10,667 nucleotides of DNA from Candidatus Heimdallarchaeota archaeon B3_Heim (GCA_003144275.1 NJBF01000073.1:1-10667); one strand, 5' to 3'; positions 1 to 10,142 are shown, counted from the first letter of the stretch. Notes: generated by a model from the letters alone, not told the origin. Numbers and translations are program-made.

Positions 1-94
1 TAGGTTTTTCGGGTCCAGTAAGGTGCTCCACGGCATGAGCGAGAGAATCCTTCGCATTCTCAATCAAATTGAATCTAATTTTCTTATTCTTCAT
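1..94 (-). CDS. 5' part of a CDS running off the window edge, hypothetical protein (MKNKKIRFNLIENAKDSLAHAVEHLTGPEKP...)
   Basis: ATG at 94-92 preceded by a strong SD (AAGGAGGTGA) about 11 nt upstream. The frame is open to base 1 (31 codons). It is not in the ORF track because it is truncated. Confidence 0.75.
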   Translation of the reverse strand, partial: MKNKKIRFNLIENAKDSLAHAVEHLTGPEKP

Positions 95-120
95 GTCTGG
101 TAGCTTCACCTCCTTTCTTC

Positions 121-230
121 AAAATCCATCTATCCCACAACTGGCTTAATTCTTTTAGCCTGATACAACCACTTTAATTTTACCCACGTCAATAGGCTGT
201 CTTATCTTGAGAAAGTGGCTATATGAGCCT
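121..230 (-). repeat. Family A intergenic element, copy 1
   Basis: Shares CACAACTGGCT (136-146), CTTTAATTTTACCCA (172-186) and ATAGGCTG (192-199) with the copies at 1479-1589 and 3868-3948. Also shares AAAATCCATCTAT and TATGAGCCT with copy 2. Confidence 0.9.
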
Positions 231-246
231 CTTTTTTTCTTGTCAA
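218..246 (-). promoter_or_regulatory. Putative sigma70-type promoter TTGACA-N17-TATAGC reading into family A copy 1 and the 1..94 gene
   Basis: Minus strand: -35 TTGACA at 246-241, 17-nt spacer, -10 TATAGC at 223-218. Confidence 0.6.
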
Positions 247-297
247 TTAGCGTAAAATCCTGATTTAGCTCTTTAAAATGCTAAAATTTCTTGGGCC

Positions 298-1413
298 TTA
301 TTTAAGACTCAACAATTTAATCTCTCCCTCGATAGCAACACCTGCATAAGAATTTGAAAGAGAGATTCTTGAAACTTTCTTACCTGGTTTCGTCTGGTAA
401 AGAACCTTTCCGTTTAGTGCATCTAAAATTATAACTGCACTATCAAAAGTACTAATGCCTACAAATTTTCCGTTTGGTGAAACAACGAGTCCTTCAATAC
501 CTCCAGCTACTTCTTGTTGAGACTCCCAAAGAACTTTGCCTTTTTGATTGAGAAGCACAAGATACACTGATTTTGTAGTAGCTATTCTTTCGCTCTCTTT
601 GTCAACAGCAATGTATCCTCCAATATCATCTTTTTCCCATAAAATTTTGCCATTTCTATTAAGAAAAACCATTCCTCCGTCATCTGTTCCTACTGCAATT
701 CTCTCTGCATATTTATCAATCCCAACATCGATAGGTGGCGAGGCAAATTGGACATGTGCTAAAACCTTACCGCTGGGATCAAAGACATATACTGCATTCT
801 CCCCCTTGGTACAGTTAAAATTTTCGTCCCAAGGACCAAATTTTTCTCCAGCTGCTACTACATAGCCTTTTTGATTAATGATCGCACAGGTTAGAAAGAC
901 ATTGAGTTCCTTTTGCCAAGTTATATCACCACTTTGGTCGAATATCCATATGGTTGATGCTGCCAGATTTCCTTTGGAATCCACTGGTATATTTCCAGCA
1001 ACCCCGCATTTGGCTTCATTGGAGTAATCAAGAGACGATGGGTTAAGAGAATCTACTCGTTTAGCCCATAACTGTTTGCTTGGTTTTATCTGAAGTAAAG
1101 AAGATATATTACTGTTATAAGCAGCAAAGACATAGTTTCCTGATACAACCACTCTCTGAGTGCTTGAACATTTCCAGCTTTTAAGAGAATTATCTTTCCG
1201 GTTATAAATACGCATAAAGCCAGCTTTCTTAGTCCCTTCAGAGAAAGCTAGATTTCCCTCTTCTGAAACTGATATGCTAAAAGTTGTATCTGTTTTATAA
1301 CTCCAAATTTCTTTAACATCTGAATCTCCTCTTGCTTGGCCTATAGAAAAAAACTCGACGATTAAAATTATTCCTAATATGCCTGCCAATATTATCCATT
1401 TCTTAATCTTCAT
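298..1413 (-). CDS. Secreted beta-propeller protein (PQQ-like/WD40-like repeats), 371 aa
   Basis: Start reassigned to ATG 1413 (MKIKKWIILAGILGIILIV..., signal-peptide-like; SD GGGAGGG at 1424-1418). The 1614 start in the ORF track only reads through repeat A copy 2. Repeated blade motifs: IWIFDQSGDITWQ, VYVFDPSGKVL, MVFLNRNGKILWEK, LVLLNQKGKVLWES, VIILDALNGKVLYQ. Confidence 0.85.
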   Translation of the reverse strand: MKIKKWIILAGILGIILIVEFFSIGQARGDSDVKEIWSYKTDTTFSISVSEEGNLAFSEGTKKAGFMRIYNRKDNSLKSWKCSSTQRVVVSGNYVFAAYNSNISSLLQIKPSKQLWAKRVDSLNPSSLDYSNEAKCGVAGNIPVDSKGNLAASTIWIFDQSGDITWQKELNVFLTCAIINQKGYVVAAGEKFGPWDENFNCTKGENAVYVFDPSGKVLAHVQFASPPIDVGIDKYAERIAVGTDDGGMVFLNRNGKILWEKDDIGGYIAVDKESERIATTKSVYLVLLNQKGKVLWESQQEVAGGIEGLVVSPNGKFVGISTFDSAVIILDALNGKVLYQTKPGKKVSRISLSNSYAGVAIEGEIKLLSLK

Positions 1414-1478
1414 TTTTCCCTCCCTTTTGATAATAAAAATTCTTGCTAAGCTCAACCTCACTTTTCCTCTTGAGACTA

Positions 1479-1589
1479 AAAATCCATCTATTCCACAACT
1501 GGCTTGATAATAATCTCTCAAGAGAGGAGCTTTAATTTTACCCAGGTCATATAGGCTGCCTTGCCTTAAGAAAGTGCCTGTATGAGCCT
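1479..1589 (-). repeat. Family A intergenic element, copy 2
   Basis: Cores at 1494-1504, 1530-1544 and 1551-1558. Its edge carries a local 9-mer duplication GCCTGTATG (1576-1584 and 1586-1594). Confidence 0.9.
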
Positions 1590-1764
1590 GTATGTGCGTC
1601 TTTCTACTTGCCAATTACCATAAACTCTTAATACAACTTTGACTCGGTCGAAAAAGCTTCATTTTTAAGAGTCTCGTGTCTTAAAACCCCCATAAAATCA
1701 GCCTCGAGCTTTTGAAAAAGAGAGTTTTTCAACAAACCCTCCTCTTATATGCTGTGCTCTTTGT

Positions 1765-2964
1765 TTACCTTATCCATACTTTTCCGAGCGTAACAAGAAA
1801 CAGTGCTATAATTAACCAACCTACAAATCCTTCTATCATAGCCAAAGTGCGAAATCTACAGATTTTTCTTCCTTTAATCTTCAAGAATTGTGCGGTGGGA
1901 TACCAGTCTCCATAACCGACTGTAGTGAAAGTATTAACACTAAAATAAAAAGCATCTGTAAATCTTGGTTTTGAGTCTGGTTTTCCTCTTTCTTTTACCG
2001 CCTTAGGTTGATAATAAAAGCACGAGAAAAGGAAAATAAGAACCAACCCATAAAGGACAGCCCGGAAAGGCTTCACCCCATATCCACAGGACAAATCTAA
2101 AAAGATGTATTCCAGTCCCCTTGTAGGATTGTACCATCTCTTCTCGATTCTTCGCTCACGAACCCTGTACTCATAATAAGCGCTGTCCGCATCTCCAAAC
2201 TCTCCCGATTCTTTGTAATGCTTTATTAACTGGGCATAAAATGTTTCATCCCATACAAGTCTTCCTTTTATTTGCCTCCAATCTATAAACAGCCCCGGGA
2301 AATCAGTATCCCCGAAGTCGACTAGATATTCGAACTGAGCATCCATGAAGAAAGCTCCTTCCTGGAATTGAGCTCCCTCGAAGTAAGCCAGTTTCCGGAA
2401 TTTAGCTTCATAGAAGTTAGCTCCCTCCTGGAATTGAGCTGTCTCGAAGAAAGCTTCTTCCTGGAATTGAGCTCTCCTGAAGTTAGGTTCTTCTTGGAAT
2501 TGAGCTTCCGAGAAGATAGCTCGTTTCTGGAATTGAGCGTACGAGAAGTCAGCTTCTTTCTGGAATTGAGCTTCCGAGAAGTCAGCTCGTTTCTGGAACT
2601 CAGTGAGATAAAAGGAAACTTCTTGAGTTAACAAGATGGGAGAATACCTGTCTGTCTCAGGGATGTAATAGCGAAAAATGGCTATTTCTTGAATAGTTGA
2701 ATTAGTAATCGTTACTTTACTTTTAACAACCCTCATTTCTTTGCCATTAATCTCTTCAACCTCTAGGTTTATTTTACTTAACTTAAGCTCTCCAGTTATT
2801 ATAGCATTGTCTATTTCCACTGGTTCTCCCTTTTCTATCATTTTAAGTATTTTTTCAGCAGGCACTTTTCCCTTTATCTCTTGAGCCAAAAGATCCTGTG
2901 ATAGCCAGACGTTTGAGAAAAAACTAATCAATATGAGCAAAATAAAAGATATGCTTACTTTCAT
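1765..2964 (-). CDS. Pentapeptide-repeat protein fused to a C-terminal two-TM potassium channel pore domain, with an N-terminal signal-peptide-like segment
   Basis: SD AAGGAGG upstream. About 9-10 repeats of FxxAQFQxxAx. The C-terminus has a TM helix, pore helix, the selectivity filter TFTTVGYGD and a second TM helix. Confidence 0.92.
   Translation of the reverse strand: MKVSISFILLILISFFSNVWLSQDLLAQEIKGKVPAEKILKMIEKGEPVEIDNAIITGELKLSKINLEVEEINGKEMRVVKSKVTITNSTIQEIAIFRYYIPETDRYSPILLTQEVSFYLTEFQKRADFSEAQFQKEADFSYAQFQKRAIFSEAQFQEEPNFRRAQFQEEAFFETAQFQEGANFYEAKFRKLAYFEGAQFQEGAFFMDAQFEYLVDFGDTDFPGLFIDWRQIKGRLVWDETFYAQLIKHYKESGEFGDADSAYYEYRVRERRIEKRWYNPTRGLEYIFLDLSCGYGVKPFRAVLYGLVLIFLFSCFYYQPKAVKERGKPDSKPRFTDAFYFSVNTFTTVGYGDWYPTAQFLKIKGRKICRFRTLAMIEGFVGWLIIALFLVTLGKVWIR
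2362..2604 (-). repeat. Intragenic 33-bp tandem repeat encoding the 11-aa (5+6) pentapeptide-type repeat
   Basis: CTGGAATTGAGC-like 12-mer starts at 2362, 2428, 2461, 2494, 2527, 2560 and 2593 (33-bp period; the unit at about 2395 is diverged). Confidence 0.9.
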
Positions 2965-3089
2965 TTTCTGGGTTTCCTCCTTTAACTTTCTGGAAAATAA
3001 TAGCTACAGATAGTTTTCCCTCTAGGCTTTGAATTGATGAGGCCGATTTAATTTTTGATCTTCCATATCTAGTCTCTCTTCGCCCATGC

Positions 3090-3204
3090 TTCTCTCGAAC
3101 CTAGTGTCTTTGGCTTGTTTCCGTCGAGTTTTGAAAATATGCTATATCCTGTGTGTCAACTTTATCTCATATCTCCAGGTCTCATTTCGGGGATACTCCC
3201 CCTC
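3090..3204 (+). repeat. Family B intergenic element, internally deleted copy (D)
   Basis: TTCTCTCGAA (3090-3099) equals 8371-8380. 3110-3125 matches 8406-8421 at 14/16. CGAGTTTTGAAAATATG (3125-3141) is identical to 10064-10080. CTCCCCCTC follows 71 nt after that block here and 70 nt after it in the 10064 copy. Confidence 0.7.
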
Positions 3205-3258
3205 TAGAATCAGAGTAATGTACTCCTGGGTTCTTTATTTTCAAGTGTTTTAGTGAAA

Positions 3259-3287
3259 TTGACTTGCCTTTTCCTAGCTTTTATAGT
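3259..3287 (+). promoter_or_regulatory. Putative sigma70 promoter TTGACT-N17-TATAGT, antisense to the 3311..3793 gene
   Basis: TTGACT at 3259-3264, 17-nt spacer, TATAGT at 3282-3287. Confidence 0.5.
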
Positions 3288-3310
3288 ATAAAGCCTAGCC
3301 CGAGCCTCTT

Positions 3311-3793
3311 TCAGAAAACATCAAGCAGTCCCCATTTATCCTTCCATTGTTTGATCCTCTTTTCATCTATGGCGTGATGCTTTGACTTTGGACTTCTGGC
3401 TCTCTTTCCTCCATGTCTATTTAGATAATCTTGATGGGTTTTGTGAATATTGTTACGAATCCACCAGTCGGGAACGATCCAAAACTCGGGGTGTTTTTTT
3501 GAACTTCCGATATCTATAAACACCCAAAATGCTGTTTCAGGCACTCTAGACTCACACGGTCTTCCTTCATCAATACTGGTATGCCATGTGCCAGAACGCT
3601 TGGTTTTAACCTGTATAGTGACTATGCGGCTTTGGTCAAGATTGCTTGCCATTATATCAATCTTGGGCATGTTACCAGCAAATGTGACCGCATACGCTCC
3701 TCTCCGATTTAACTCTGCAGCGACGTAATATTCCCCAGCTCGAGCAGTTTGTTGATTCTTTGCACCGCGGTTACCTGAAGATTCTTCTGCCAT
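3311..3793 (-). CDS. PD-(D/E)XK superfamily nuclease (stand-alone, Hjc/restriction-endonuclease-like), about 160 aa
   Basis: Motifs GEYYVAAEL ... KIDIMA ... IQVKT (E...D...QxK). ATG 3793 with GGAGA upstream is preferred over GTG 3808. Confidence 0.85.
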   Translation of the reverse strand: MAEESSGNRGAKNQQTARAGEYYVAAELNRRGAYAVTFAGNMPKIDIMASNLDQSRIVTIQVKTKRSGTWHTSIDEGRPCESRVPETAFWVFIDIGSSKKHPEFWIVPDWWIRNNIHKTHQDYLNRHGGKRARSPKSKHHAIDEKRIKQWKDKWGLLDVF

Positions 3794-3867
3794 GATTTGC
3801 TTCTCCACTATATTTGTTTTTCATATTCTTTTATAACATTTTTGACATTGCCAAAAGCTCTGTATTG

Positions 3868-3948
3868 CACAACTGGCTCGATAAAAATTTCTTAATAGAG
3901 GAGCTTTAATTTTACCCAGGCCTTATAGGTTGCTTCTTCTTGAGAGAG
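3868..3948 (-). repeat. Family A intergenic element, copy 3
   Basis: Cores at 3868-3878, 3904-3918 and 3925-3932 (ATAGGTTG). It is closer to copy 2 than to copy 1 in the variable spacer. Confidence 0.9.
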
Positions 3949-4028
3949 GACCTCTTTTATCTAGTCGGCATCAACCCCAATTTTTACTTTATTAATTCTC
4001 TTTTGCTCGTCCTTTCCTGCTTATTGTC

Positions 4029-4367
4029 TTACCTTCTAGCAGATGCAGAGCATTTTTTCTTCTTTCTTTGTTGCCATATCTCTTTTATTGCAGCTCCTAC
4101 CTTTCTGAACTCCTCTTCTGTAAATTTATCACTTTTAGCATTATTACACAGAGAACAAGATAGGACACAATTTTCCTTGCTATAGCCTTTCGCATTATCC
4201 TTACGTTCAAGTTCCAATTTTTTACCCCTCTTATCTTGACCATAAAATTTGTGCCAGATTGGAATAACTTCTTCTTCCTGGATTCCACAGTAGTGGCACT
4301 GTCACCCATCTCTTCTGTAAAGTTTTTCTCGCAATCTATCTTTTTCCTTGTTACTTATTTTCGTCAT
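4029..4367 (-). pseudogene. HNH-type zinc-binding endonuclease interrupted by an in-frame TGA
   Basis: One frame from ATG 4367: MTKISNKEKDRLREKLYRRDG*QCHYCGIQEEE...LELERKDNAKGYSKENCVLSCSLCNNAK. TGA at 4304-4302. CxYC and CxxCN motifs are intact. Confidence 0.8.
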
Positions 4368-7351: not shown

Positions 7352-7374
7352 GATTGCGGCCCGGTATGTAATTT

Positions 7375-7446
7375 CGGTAATCCAGCTGCCATTTAAAAGG
7401 CCTATGGTTTTGCGCCCTATTCTTTCGAACAGTTTGCCTTTGTCGA
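7375..7446 (-). promoter_or_regulatory. Cyclic di-GMP-I (GEMM-I) riboswitch aptamer
   Basis: Minus strand UCGACAAAGGCAAACUGUUCGAAAGAAUAGGGCGCAAAACCAUAGGCCUUUUAAAUGGCAGCUGGAUUACCG. It has GGCAAA, a stem capped by a GAAA tetraloop, GCGCAAAA, a second stem, and 3' UUACCG. Confidence 0.92.
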
Positions 7447-7529
7447 TTACATCCTTCTTAGCTATTGAACGATTAATCAAAGATCCACTTCTCTAGTAGT
7501 CATGTCCAAGTATCTGATAGCGCATTGTT

Positions 7530-7557: not shown

Positions 7558-7608
7558 GTGATGTATTCTTTTGGTCTTGATGATTGCCTCAACAGCATAC
7601 CCCTAAAT

Positions 7609-7641
7609 CAGATTGACAAGTGCTGAGATTTGGCTTAGACT
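7609..7641 (+). promoter_or_regulatory. Family B element copy A, which is a near-consensus sigma70 promoter (TTGACA-N17-TAGACT)
   Basis: TTGACA at 7613-7618, TAGACT at 7636-7641. 7609-7636 matches 8385-8412 at 27/28, and its first 24 nt match 10006-10029 at 23/24. Confidence 0.8.
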
Positions 7642-8367: not shown

Positions 8368-8421
8368 GTATTCTCTCGAAGAACCAGATTGGCAAGTGCT
8401 GAGATTTGGCTTGGCTCCGTC
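8368..8421 (+). repeat. Family B element copy B
   Basis: 27/28 identity to 7609-7636. The upstream GTATT..CTC.AA is similar to 9990-10005. The -35 is TTGGCA and the -10 is lost. Confidence 0.85.
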
Positions 8422-9989: not shown

Positions 9990-10142
9990 GTATTTCCTCA
10001 AAACCCGGATTGACAAGTGCTGAGATTTGTTTCCCAGTATAACACGAGATCAATCTTACTCTCCGAGTTTTGAAAATATGTTGTATCGTGTTAGTGAGGT
10101 TTTATAGATGATTTTATCGTCCGAGTGGCACTGCTCCCCCTC
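9990..10142 (+). repeat. Family B element copy C (longest)
   Basis: Contains both the GATTGACAAGTGCTGAGATTTG block (shared with 7611 and 8387) and the CGAGTTTTGAAAATATG...CTCCCCCTC block (shared with 3125-3204). Confidence 0.8.

Follow-up and report, generated by a model that had tools for sequence, protein, structure and literature searches.

A two-box intergenic element in co-oriented gene arrays of sediment metagenomes: a possible regulatory and boundary cassette

The contig analyzed here in its entirety (the window; NJBF01000073.1, 10,667 nt, contig C83 of the 3.95-Mb, 103-contig bin Candidatus Heimdallarchaeota archaeon B3_Heim) carries three copies of an intergenic element that we call Family A. 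Family A is a previously undescribed family of noncoding elements of about 150-190 nt in which two conserved boxes keep a nearly fixed distance; its copies lie in one orientation between unrelated genes, show no structural constraint, and contain breakpoints at which related contigs pass from one gene module to another. We tentatively read the element as a composite regulatory and boundary cassette that would be recognized at the DNA level and would also provide portable homology for module shuffling.

RESULTS

Three copies with fixed box spacing lie in the window

Family A is described on the minus strand, which we take as the sense strand because all neighboring genes are on it. An initial annotation, made from the window sequence alone, had reported three copies of an invariant 11-mer and an invariant 15-mer at a constant distance, and these were recovered exactly. 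The 11-mer CACAACTGGCT matches the plus strand at 136, 1494, and 3868 and the 15-mer CTTTAATTTTACCCA at 172, 1530, and 3904, three times each in the window, with starts 36 nt apart in 3 of 3 copies; for neither word did any of 200 dinucleotide shuffles reach three matches. The copies proved longer than the intervals first given (121-230, 1479-1589, and 3868-3948) when they were extended with a hidden Markov model (HMM) of the three copies and then with an HMM of the whole family. The 15-mer is referred to as box 1 and the 11-mer as box 2.

103-259, minus strand: copy 1 of Family A, full length, comprising 5' module and 3' core; family-HMM match by nhmmer, E = 4e-31
136-146, minus strand: box 2 of copy 1, sense AGCCAGTTGTG; pattern match and alignment
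172-186, minus strand: box 1 of copy 1, sense TGGGTAAAATTAAAG; pattern match and alignment
1454-1628, minus strand: Family A copy 2, full length, nearest to the family consensus; nhmmer E = 1.7e-44
1494-1504, minus strand: box 2 of copy 2; exact 11-mer match
1530-1544, minus strand: box 1 of copy 2; exact 15-mer match
3846-3959, minus strand: Family A copy 3, 3' core only (HMM positions 45-158); nhmmer E = 5.9e-28
3868-3878, minus strand: box 2 of copy 3; exact 11-mer match
3904-3918, minus strand: box 1 of copy 3; exact 15-mer match

The minus-strand genes that come next start at 94, 1413, and 3793, which places their start codons 42, 81, and 75 nt from box 2, in agreement with the placement some 40-80 nt 5' of different genes that had been proposed. 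Copy 2 holds a perfect 10-nt tandem repeat, CATACAGGCT/CATACAGGCA; copy 1 has a 9-nt deletion in the tandem region (CATAGAGGCT/CATATAGGCA in the family) and an atypical spacer; and copy 3 has unrelated sequence in place of the 5' module. The good promoter once seen ahead of copy 1 did not withstand scrutiny, as the TTGACA-N17-TATAGC in question sits within the element's own 5' module, fails a promoter scan, and has a hexamer spacing that other copies do not maintain. Neither HMM found a further copy in the rest of the bin.

The element belongs to a family in sediment metagenomes

A loosened two-box pattern was run on public metagenome contigs, followed by nhmmer with the family HMM on the matching loci (L-numbers below denote these and other public loci that were compared). 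The pattern found 55 stretches, 40 of them at the exact window spacing, and the HMM search, which had been suggested for the genome and its relatives, ended here with about 75 copies, 64 of them distinct, on about 45 sediment-metagenome contigs. Among 61 copies the boxes are 36 nt apart in 51, 35 nt apart in five, and 37 nt apart in five. The sense consensus runs ...GAGCTAAATCAAGATTTTATGCTGATTGACAAGAAAAAAGACGCACATAGAGGCTCATATAGGCACTTTCTCAAGGCAAGGCAACCTATATGACCTGGGTAAAATTAAAGCTCCTCTATCAAGAGATTTTTATCAAGCCAGTTGTGGGATAGAGGGATTTTT and is followed by a variable stretch, AGGAGG, and a start codon.

The element is made of sub-modules: a 5' module, two tandem 10-nt repeats, and a 3' core with the near-invariant boxes TGGGTAAAATTAAAG and ATCAAGCCAGTTGTGGGATAGAG that ends a few to about 70 nt ahead of the ribosome-binding site of the next gene. 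The 5' module exists in two unrelated variants that meet at an A run, one with ...GAGCTAAATCAAGATTTTATGCTGATTGACAAGAAAAAAG and one without TTGACA. Column information is sharply uneven along the alignment; in box 2, GCCAGTT is invariant family-wide, and the next 4 nt are the most variable positions of the core. The 25-nt spacer had been described as variable, which is true inside the window, but across the family it has a clear consensus of its own, from which copy 1 departs as an outlier. The motif ATA[G/T]AGG occupies five fixed positions, three direct (two of them exactly 10 nt apart) and two inverted, and is enriched 31-fold in the element over the surrounding loci.

That Family A is a functional site and not a product of decay, as had been supposed from three copies, is upheld in 60 further copies by spacing, uniform orientation, and uneven column conservation. 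The sharply position-specific conservation across copies from nine studies argues for purifying selection. Three observations had been named beforehand as speaking against a functional site, namely, copies in random orientation or context, a match to the end of an insertion sequence (IS) or miniature inverted-repeat transposable element (MITE), and loss of the 36-nt spacing; none of them was made.

By word index, parts of window positions 1-4200 occur in public runs of sediment and soil metagenomes from nine studies, to a maximum of 42% per run. In three DNA metagenomes, contigs aligned to the window pile up over the element to about 10-50 times the summed depth of the flanking genes; they leave about 1680-3080 of 1-4200 uncovered and show joints (1553>233, 3932>201, and 3156>1479) that may be arrangements of other strains. 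Contigs from an RNA library, one of them over 129-806, join the element to flanking genes, with DNA carry-over a possible source. The two-box pattern had no match in 2.9 million viral contigs, and its six matches in 185,579 species-representative genomes were none of them an element by nhmmer. No true copy was present in 60 relatives of the window bin; a match in the relative G023 (L010, C490, 2407-2450) is regarded as chance, as it has a 23-nt gap and lies within a HEAT-repeat gene. It consists of codons of the HEAT-repeat motif (…LGKIKDPQAIVPLAS…), so that AT-rich codon usage, here in a Heimdallarchaeota bin, can mimic the boxes. A 166-nt indel between L028 and L055 was also rejected as a Family A element.

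Copies stand in one orientation among unrelated genes

Orientation and downstream genes were tabulated for the family. All copies lie on one strand in 19 of 19 multicopy sources, several of which are overlapping assemblies of the same DNA, and nearly all genes between copies are co-directional with the element. Units between successive copies hold 0-13 open reading frames (ORFs). One unit is "empty": in L019:8038-8562, two copies are 278 nt apart with no ORF of at least 70 amino acids (aa) between them. In about two-thirds of cases the 3' end of the element and the next start codon are separated by 0-70 nt, with AGGAGG in between, and in many copies the element starts 0-80 nt past the upstream stop codon.

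The genes themselves are diverse. The 33 distinct first downstream proteins have no Pfam family in common, and most are without any family; GGDEF-GAF, bifunctional nuclease, NfeD, PLD, BamB-like propeller, SNase, and fn3 proteins occur as single examples. N termini resembling signal peptides or membrane anchors are present in about 16 of 36 first downstream proteins.

Primary sequence rather than structure is constrained

Three candidate folds were examined for covariation on a 52-copy alignment (A4) with 500 shuffles, and folding energies were compared with those of dinucleotide shuffles. Two hairpins can be traced in the consensus, TCATATAGG/CCTATATGA and AAAG-CTCCTCTATC ... GATAGAGGGA-TTTTT, the second with a 27-nt loop that holds box 2; an attC-like fold with CAAC/GTTG at its base can be traced as well. 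Pairing in the three folds was 76.5%, 85.5%, and 93.4% against 76.6%, 85.7%, and 94.0% in shuffles, and the covariation scores were matched by 284-496 of the 500 shuffles, or by 284-500 when the percentage paired was included. The two hairpins together (P1+P2), the attC-like fold, and a small ACCUA/UGGGU hairpin were rejected, none of them exceeding shuffles. RNAalifold returned an empty consensus structure, and mean folding-energy z scores were -0.23 (3' core, sense), -0.44 (3' core, antisense), and -0.52 (5' half). Rfam gave no match on Family A at E ≤ 1 with the whole window or at E ≤ 10 with a 191-nt excerpt (1440-1630). The lack of excess covariation and the ordinary folding energies indicate that constraint acts on primary sequence, not on structure; the apparent stems are accounted for by the recurrent ATA[G/T]AGG motif. 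The 5'-leader RNA that had been proposed, taken as a structured RNA, found no support.

Other candidate functions were discarded. A 20-codon micro-ORF over the core (MTWVKLKLLYQEIFIKPVVG followed by a stop) is open to the same stop in 27 of 48 copies, with about half lacking a start codon, 10 copies having early stops, indels of ±1 nt, and no third-position conservation pattern. Several motifs were looked for by eye only and remained unconvincing: a sigma-54 site (GG-N10-GC present, TTGC absent), a sigma-B-like GGGTAA, an extended -10 TAAAAT without a -35, archaeal BRE/TATA, and an IHF site (WATCAANNNNTTR, one position off the consensus).

Module boundaries of related contigs fall inside the element

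Breakpoints were mapped by comparing contigs that are >93% identical over part of their length. Seven junctions were located, three at box 2 (within AGCCAGTTGTGGGAT), two in the 5' module, one just 5' of box 1, and one 3' of the element, so that breakpoints inside or at the edge of the element occupy at least four different positions.

The window and L048 have the beta-propeller gene that follows copy 2 in common (99.7% protein identity), together with the element downstream of it, copy 1, which is 100% identical up to GTTGTGGGAT before the two contigs diverge; on the upstream side of this gene the difference reaches as far as the ribosome-binding site, and L048 lacks the element in that region. 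The window and L043 agree throughout from AGCCAGTTGTG of copy 3 onward, downstream gene included, and upstream of box 2 their elements differ at 5 of 24 positions and the sequence farther out differs completely. L019 and L028 have the upstream flank and the element in common up to CCAGTT. From GACCTGGGTAAAAT on, through the 3' core and the downstream gene, L036 matches L059 at 100% identity, but the 5' halves of the two elements are different. The pairs L015/L024 and L023/L031 switch within the 5' module, directly after AAGAAAAAAGAC, and L021 and L035 switch directly 3' of the element.

The 5' module also occurs in other company. Two elements on L076 (5328-5460 and 6470-6580) have the 5' module with TTGRCA but run into CAGTCAAGGTATATCC AA GGATATACCTTGACTG, a perfect palindrome of 14 bp, in place of the two-box core, which indicates a wider superfamily of modular intergenic cassettes. 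The 5' module further has CTAAATCAG...ATTGACAAG in common with a second repeat of the window, Family B (AATCAGATTGACAAGTGCTGAGATTTGGCTT; 7606-7636, 8382-8412, and 10003-10033, plus strand), whose copies precede plus-strand genes; the one at 7606 reads TTGACA-N17-TAGACT.

A regulatory and boundary cassette is tentatively favored

Three roles had been put forward for the element: a 5'-leader RNA, a two-box operator, and a recombination site. Among them, a putative two-box regulatory site read in DNA fits best. The element would be a shared promoter-proximal or operator region that acts as DNA sequence and is recognized by one or more sequence-specific proteins, ATA[G/T]AGG recurring five times within it. 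Otherwise unrelated, often exported, accessory genes would come under one control in this way. Because the same ~150 nt recur in one orientation between units, the elements could serve as portable homology, and recombination within them would swap, delete, and re-assort gene modules. The primary role would be regulatory, and module shuffling would be a consequence of the repeated homology. We infer protein binding, transcriptional control, and an exchange that is homologous rather than site specific. In favor of this reading we count the box geometry, the single orientation, the position ahead of the next start codon, the unrelated and often exported downstream genes, the constraint on sequence, the repeated motif, the modularity, the breakpoints, the depth in metagenomes, and, as a link to a promoter, the sequence that the 5' module has in common with Family B.

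Several findings weigh against this interpretation. At least eight copies have no co-directional downstream gene and face a convergent gene, so that a purely 5'-regulatory role cannot account for all copies. The neighborhood of the element does not consistently encode any candidate binding protein. A promoter scan accepts no canonical sigma-70 site inside the window copies, and the hexamer 16-18 nt past the conserved TTGACA is without the usual final T. Lastly, three of the seven breakpoints are at box 2, which fits homologous exchange in the longest invariant stretch or, alternatively, a specific crossover site.

Tyrosine recombinases and the possibility of a dedicated recombination site

If such a crossover site exists, Family A would belong to a non-integron cassette system in which a tyrosine recombinase crosses at or beside box 2, between GCCAGTT and GTGG. 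Element-bounded units would be captured, excised, and re-ordered, or islands would integrate serially into the element and regenerate it; both variants taken together, we consider this explanation rather unlikely. It would suit the co-oriented arrays of element-bounded units, including the 278-nt unit without an ORF, the three breakpoints within AGCCAGTTGTGGGAT, and the position of the most variable 4 nt of the core directly after the invariant GCCAGTT. Among roughly 260 protein clusters of the loci, six are tyrosine recombinases; the arrays repeatedly contain HU-like genes; and the array of L021 lies inside an island that begins with tRNA genes and an integrase. In addition, a gene for a 222-239-aa Xer-like recombinase is found tail-to-tail with the terminal element in two contexts, the L014/L041/L063/L069/L072 group and L034.

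The recombinase at L014:7958-8626 and its homologues (P0001-P0028) form a clade of 222-227-aa tyrosine recombinases that have no N-terminal core-binding domain, nor is such a domain encoded in any frame in the 1.5 kb upstream. Identity within the clade is 53-95% and falls sharply, to about 45%, against XerC/XerD. In P0021, P0022, and P0023 (L079:2301-3377), the short Xer-like catalytic domain is fused to an N-terminal PAS or dCache sensor, also without a core-binding domain, which is an unusual architecture, and the L079 gene adjoins genes for a histidine kinase and for chemotaxis. Contigs of nine other members (L074, L075, L078, L079, and L089-L093) were read, and on none does an element lie beside the gene, the neighborhoods being phage- or plasmid-like (RecA, RuvC, primase, PolA, TerL, and ParA), and the element is 4 kb away from a further member on L076. 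With none of the nine adjoining an element, the association of element and short recombinase is not general.

Further observations speak against a dedicated site. Four of the seven breakpoints are not at box 2, which is flanked by no inverted recombinase-binding arms, and the element has neither an R''/R' pair nor a stable hairpin. IntI was not found among the seven tyrosine recombinases of the loci, whose contigs are mostly short (TIGR02249, 68-121 bits with a cutoff of 265; NF011946, 37-73 bits with a cutoff of 435). Units hold 1-13 genes, and the bases directly past GTT vary between copies, which would block exchange if they formed the overlap region. Of the recombination site first proposed there remains the fact that module boundaries of related contigs fall inside the element; that these boundaries lie at several positions, and that attC features and an integron integrase were not found, tells against it. 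A more specific version, which we regard as doubtful, is a cassette-capture system distinct from integrons, with a sequence-defined site of ~150 nt, a crossover between GCCAGTT and NNGR, the 222-aa Xer-like recombinase, and perhaps an HU/IHF-like helper; it would build co-oriented arrays of multigene units rich in exported proteins.

RNA, 3'-end, and selfish-repeat explanations

The element could also specify a structured cis-regulatory RNA, such as a riboswitch or a protein-binding leader, or be a multicopy small RNA gene, with box 2 as an exposed loop. The sense orientation 5' of genes and the long hairpin that can be drawn (AAAG-CUCCUCUAUC...GAUAGAGGGA-UUUUU, with the U run after it) would agree with this, and RNA-library contigs provide a weak hint, subject to the possible DNA carry-over. 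A degenerate relative of the c-di-GMP-I (GEMM-I) riboswitch comes to mind, since AAGGCAA, AAAGC, and AGCCAGUUG occur in similar order and likewise 5' of genes, a true c-di-GMP-I-GGC riboswitch is present on C83, L063, and L069, and one downstream gene encodes a GAF-GGDEF protein. A GEMM-I variant was nevertheless rejected (no match to the covariance models RF01051 and RF03167 at E = 10, no GNRA loop or receptor, and no covariation). The fold and energy results given above, the lack of any Rfam match even at E = 10, the roughly 23% of long-hairpin cells that are unpaired, and downstream genes without anything in common make an RNA of any such kind very unlikely.

There is an equally slim prospect that the element belongs to the 3' end of the upstream unit, as a terminator, insulator, or mRNA-end element, instead of the 5' end of the next gene. 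Its start shortly past the upstream stop codon in many copies, the at least eight copies followed only by a convergent gene, and the co-inheritance of the beta-propeller gene with its downstream element in the window and L048, where the region upstream of the gene differs, all point in this direction, and the consensus ends in GGGATTTTT behind a self-complementary segment with an A-tract upstream. A terminator scan of the three window copies was negative, however; the candidate stem has the 27-nt conserved loop, no covariation, and an ordinary folding energy, and conservation peaks in this would-be loop and in box 1, neither of which a terminator requires. Moreover, the core goes with the downstream gene in the comparisons of the window with L043 and of L036 with L059.

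Lastly, a selfish, nonautonomous MITE-like repeat, or a young local duplication without host function, is highly improbable: the element is indeed far commoner than neighboring genes in metagenomes, patchy (absent from the rest of the bin, its 60 relatives, and 100 relatives of a second bin, G061), and weakly alike at its two ends by eye (GCCTAAATC ... GATTTTTAGGC), but its orientation is strictly uniform relative to genes and other copies, whereas MITEs insert both ways, its spacing is kept to ±1 nt, its conservation is sharply position specific across nine studies, and no convincing terminal inverted repeats or target-site duplications were seen, the duplications not having been sought systematically.

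Genes of the window and origin of the contig

The minus-strand genes that flank the copies are as follows.

1-94, minus strand: gene downstream of copy 1, first 31 codons, truncated by the contig end; translation, with AGGAGGTGA before the ATG
298-1413, minus strand: gene downstream of copy 2, 371-aa exported beta-propeller protein (PQQ_2/BamB-like); Pfam PF13360, E = 8e-9
1765-2964, minus strand: pentapeptide-repeat and ion-channel protein; Pfam PF13576 and PF07885
3311-3793, minus strand: gene downstream of copy 3, 160-aa protein without a Pfam family, 98% identical to the L043 protein

The beta-propeller assigned by the initial annotation agrees with the Pfam match. Two other assignments had to be revised: the 160-aa protein, called a PD-(D/E)XK nuclease, matches no Pfam family, and the interval between copies 3 and 2, said to hold one gene, is a two-gene unit, in which the pentapeptide-repeat/channel gene is counted as the first gene and lacks its own Family A copy. 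In the interval that separates the channel gene from the 160-aa gene, window segments 3126-3199 and 3231-3269 exceed the flanking genes 10-40 times in summed depth in three DNA metagenomes and also occur on several RNA-library contigs, which makes them further dispersed repeats. Window positions 3125-3163 resemble 10064-10102.

The contig is an outlier in its bin, with the highest G+C content (40.5% versus 36.1%); in tetranucleotide composition, only six of the 103 contigs correlate less well with the rest of the bin (0.91; median, 0.989). Other short contigs (C40, C81, C17, C29, C39, and C89) are similar compositional outliers and may also be foreign. The window carries the c-di-GMP-I-GGC riboswitch at 7372-7447 on the minus strand (60.4 bits; Rfam gathering score, 59), which supports a bacterial origin, and the same variant occurs at L063:3080-3155 (minus strand) and L069:11504-11579 (plus strand), beside the module of element and recombinase. 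Related contigs encode HU, a secretin-like protein, GAF-GGDEF, a solute-binding protein, DDE transposases, and tRNA-adjacent integrases; a search with the solute-binding protein gave matches labeled only "Bacteria," from mixed phyla. A second public bin with the element is G061 (through L076), whose relatives are all small genomes of 0.4-1.2 Mb, and none of 100 of these relatives contains Family A. Composition, riboswitch, bacterial genes, and the element-free relatives of G061 together point to bacterial accessory or mobile DNA that was binned with unrelated genomes. C83 is therefore probably bacterial or mobile DNA mis-binned into an Asgard bin, and we infer that Family A is carried on the accessory or mobile DNA of an uncultured sediment bacterium.

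DISCUSSION

The nearest analogue of Family A is the PeSL (promoter-early stem-loop) cassette of T4-type phages. PeSLs are described as small terminator/promoter composites that act as mobile regulatory cassettes, and the end points of indels or replacements between close relatives lie in the motifs and are read as module-shuffling homologous exchange (Arbiol et al. 2010, PMC2839356; Comeau et al. 2014, PMC4122927). Both are short, conserved, composite noncoding repeats that stand in one orientation between small, unrelated, mostly unknown genes of hypervariable regions, and in Family A, too, module end points between close relatives fall in the motif. Family A differs in its length of 150-190 nt and its two invariant boxes at a fixed distance. 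Of a terminator and promoter it has TTGACA in one 5' variant and a U run past a self-complementary segment, none of which passes a scan. PeSLs reside in hyperplastic regions of T4-like phage genomes, whereas Family A has no match in viral contigs, and its gene content (HU, secretin, GGDEF, solute-binding protein, and c-di-GMP riboswitch) looks bacterial.

Integrons have been reported to be enriched in Asgard bins, with attC/CALIN arrays among them (Ghaly et al. 2022, PMC9668308). Family A arrays resemble these in that they are co-oriented, hold unrelated, mostly uncharacterized genes, many of them exported, contain a repeat of similar size (attC, ~60-140 nt) with an invariant GTT triplet, and have units that occur in different neighborhoods in different genomes. 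The defining features of attC are absent, however. The R''(RYYYAAC)/R'(GTTRRRY) pair was not found, the sole GTT box being GTTGTGG (variants GTTCTGG, GTTGCGG, GTTATGG, and others); its only upstream partner, GGCAAC, pairs over 4 nt, and AAC is not invariant (at position 47, 34 copies have A and 18 have G; 44 of 52 keep C49). At 85.5% against 85.7%, the attC-like fold is paired no more often than shuffles, and the core folds with ordinary energy on either strand; attC sites conserve structure, and Family A conserves primary sequence. No IntI was found among the recombinases of the loci (IntI is required for a complete integron, not for a CALIN), attC cassettes are co-oriented and typically contain one promoterless ORF each, while Family A units, co-oriented in all 19 multicopy sources, hold 0-13 ORFs and often several genes, and the breakpoints of Family A lie at several positions. 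Because Family A fails the tests that define attC and no IntI was found in the loci, it should not be filed as an integron or CALIN, similar as the array architecture is.

Bacterial interspersed mosaic elements (BIMEs), or RIPs, of enterobacteria offer a third comparison. They are mosaic intergenic elements with varying combinations of sub-motifs, in which inverted short units surround a conserved central segment; they lie outside genes but within transcribed regions, reach hundreds of copies genome-wide, and have palindromic units that form real hairpins. Family A is likewise mosaic, intergenic, and composed of sub-motifs in different combinations, and it, too, has inverted short units around a conserved center and lies outside genes but presumably within transcribed regions. 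It differs in being clustered in arrays on one contig of the bin and in giving no structural signal. Likeness to MITE or IS ends is confined to the weak resemblance of the two ends noted by eye, and the orientation of Family A is uniform.

If the tentatively favored reading of Family A as a regulatory and boundary cassette is true, uncultured sediment bacteria would use a conserved cassette on their chromosomal or mobile DNA to put together and reshuffle groups of accessory genes that are unrelated and in many cases exported, a form of shuffling documented so far mainly for T4-type phages. Integron-like arrays of this kind land in unrelated bins, here a Heimdall-type Asgard bin and a small-genome bin, and such mis-binned arrays bear on claims of gene-cassette arrays and of cross-domain transfer in archaeal bins. 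The two invariant boxes provide a specific probe for finding further arrays and their hosts, as well as a defined DNA target for binding tests.

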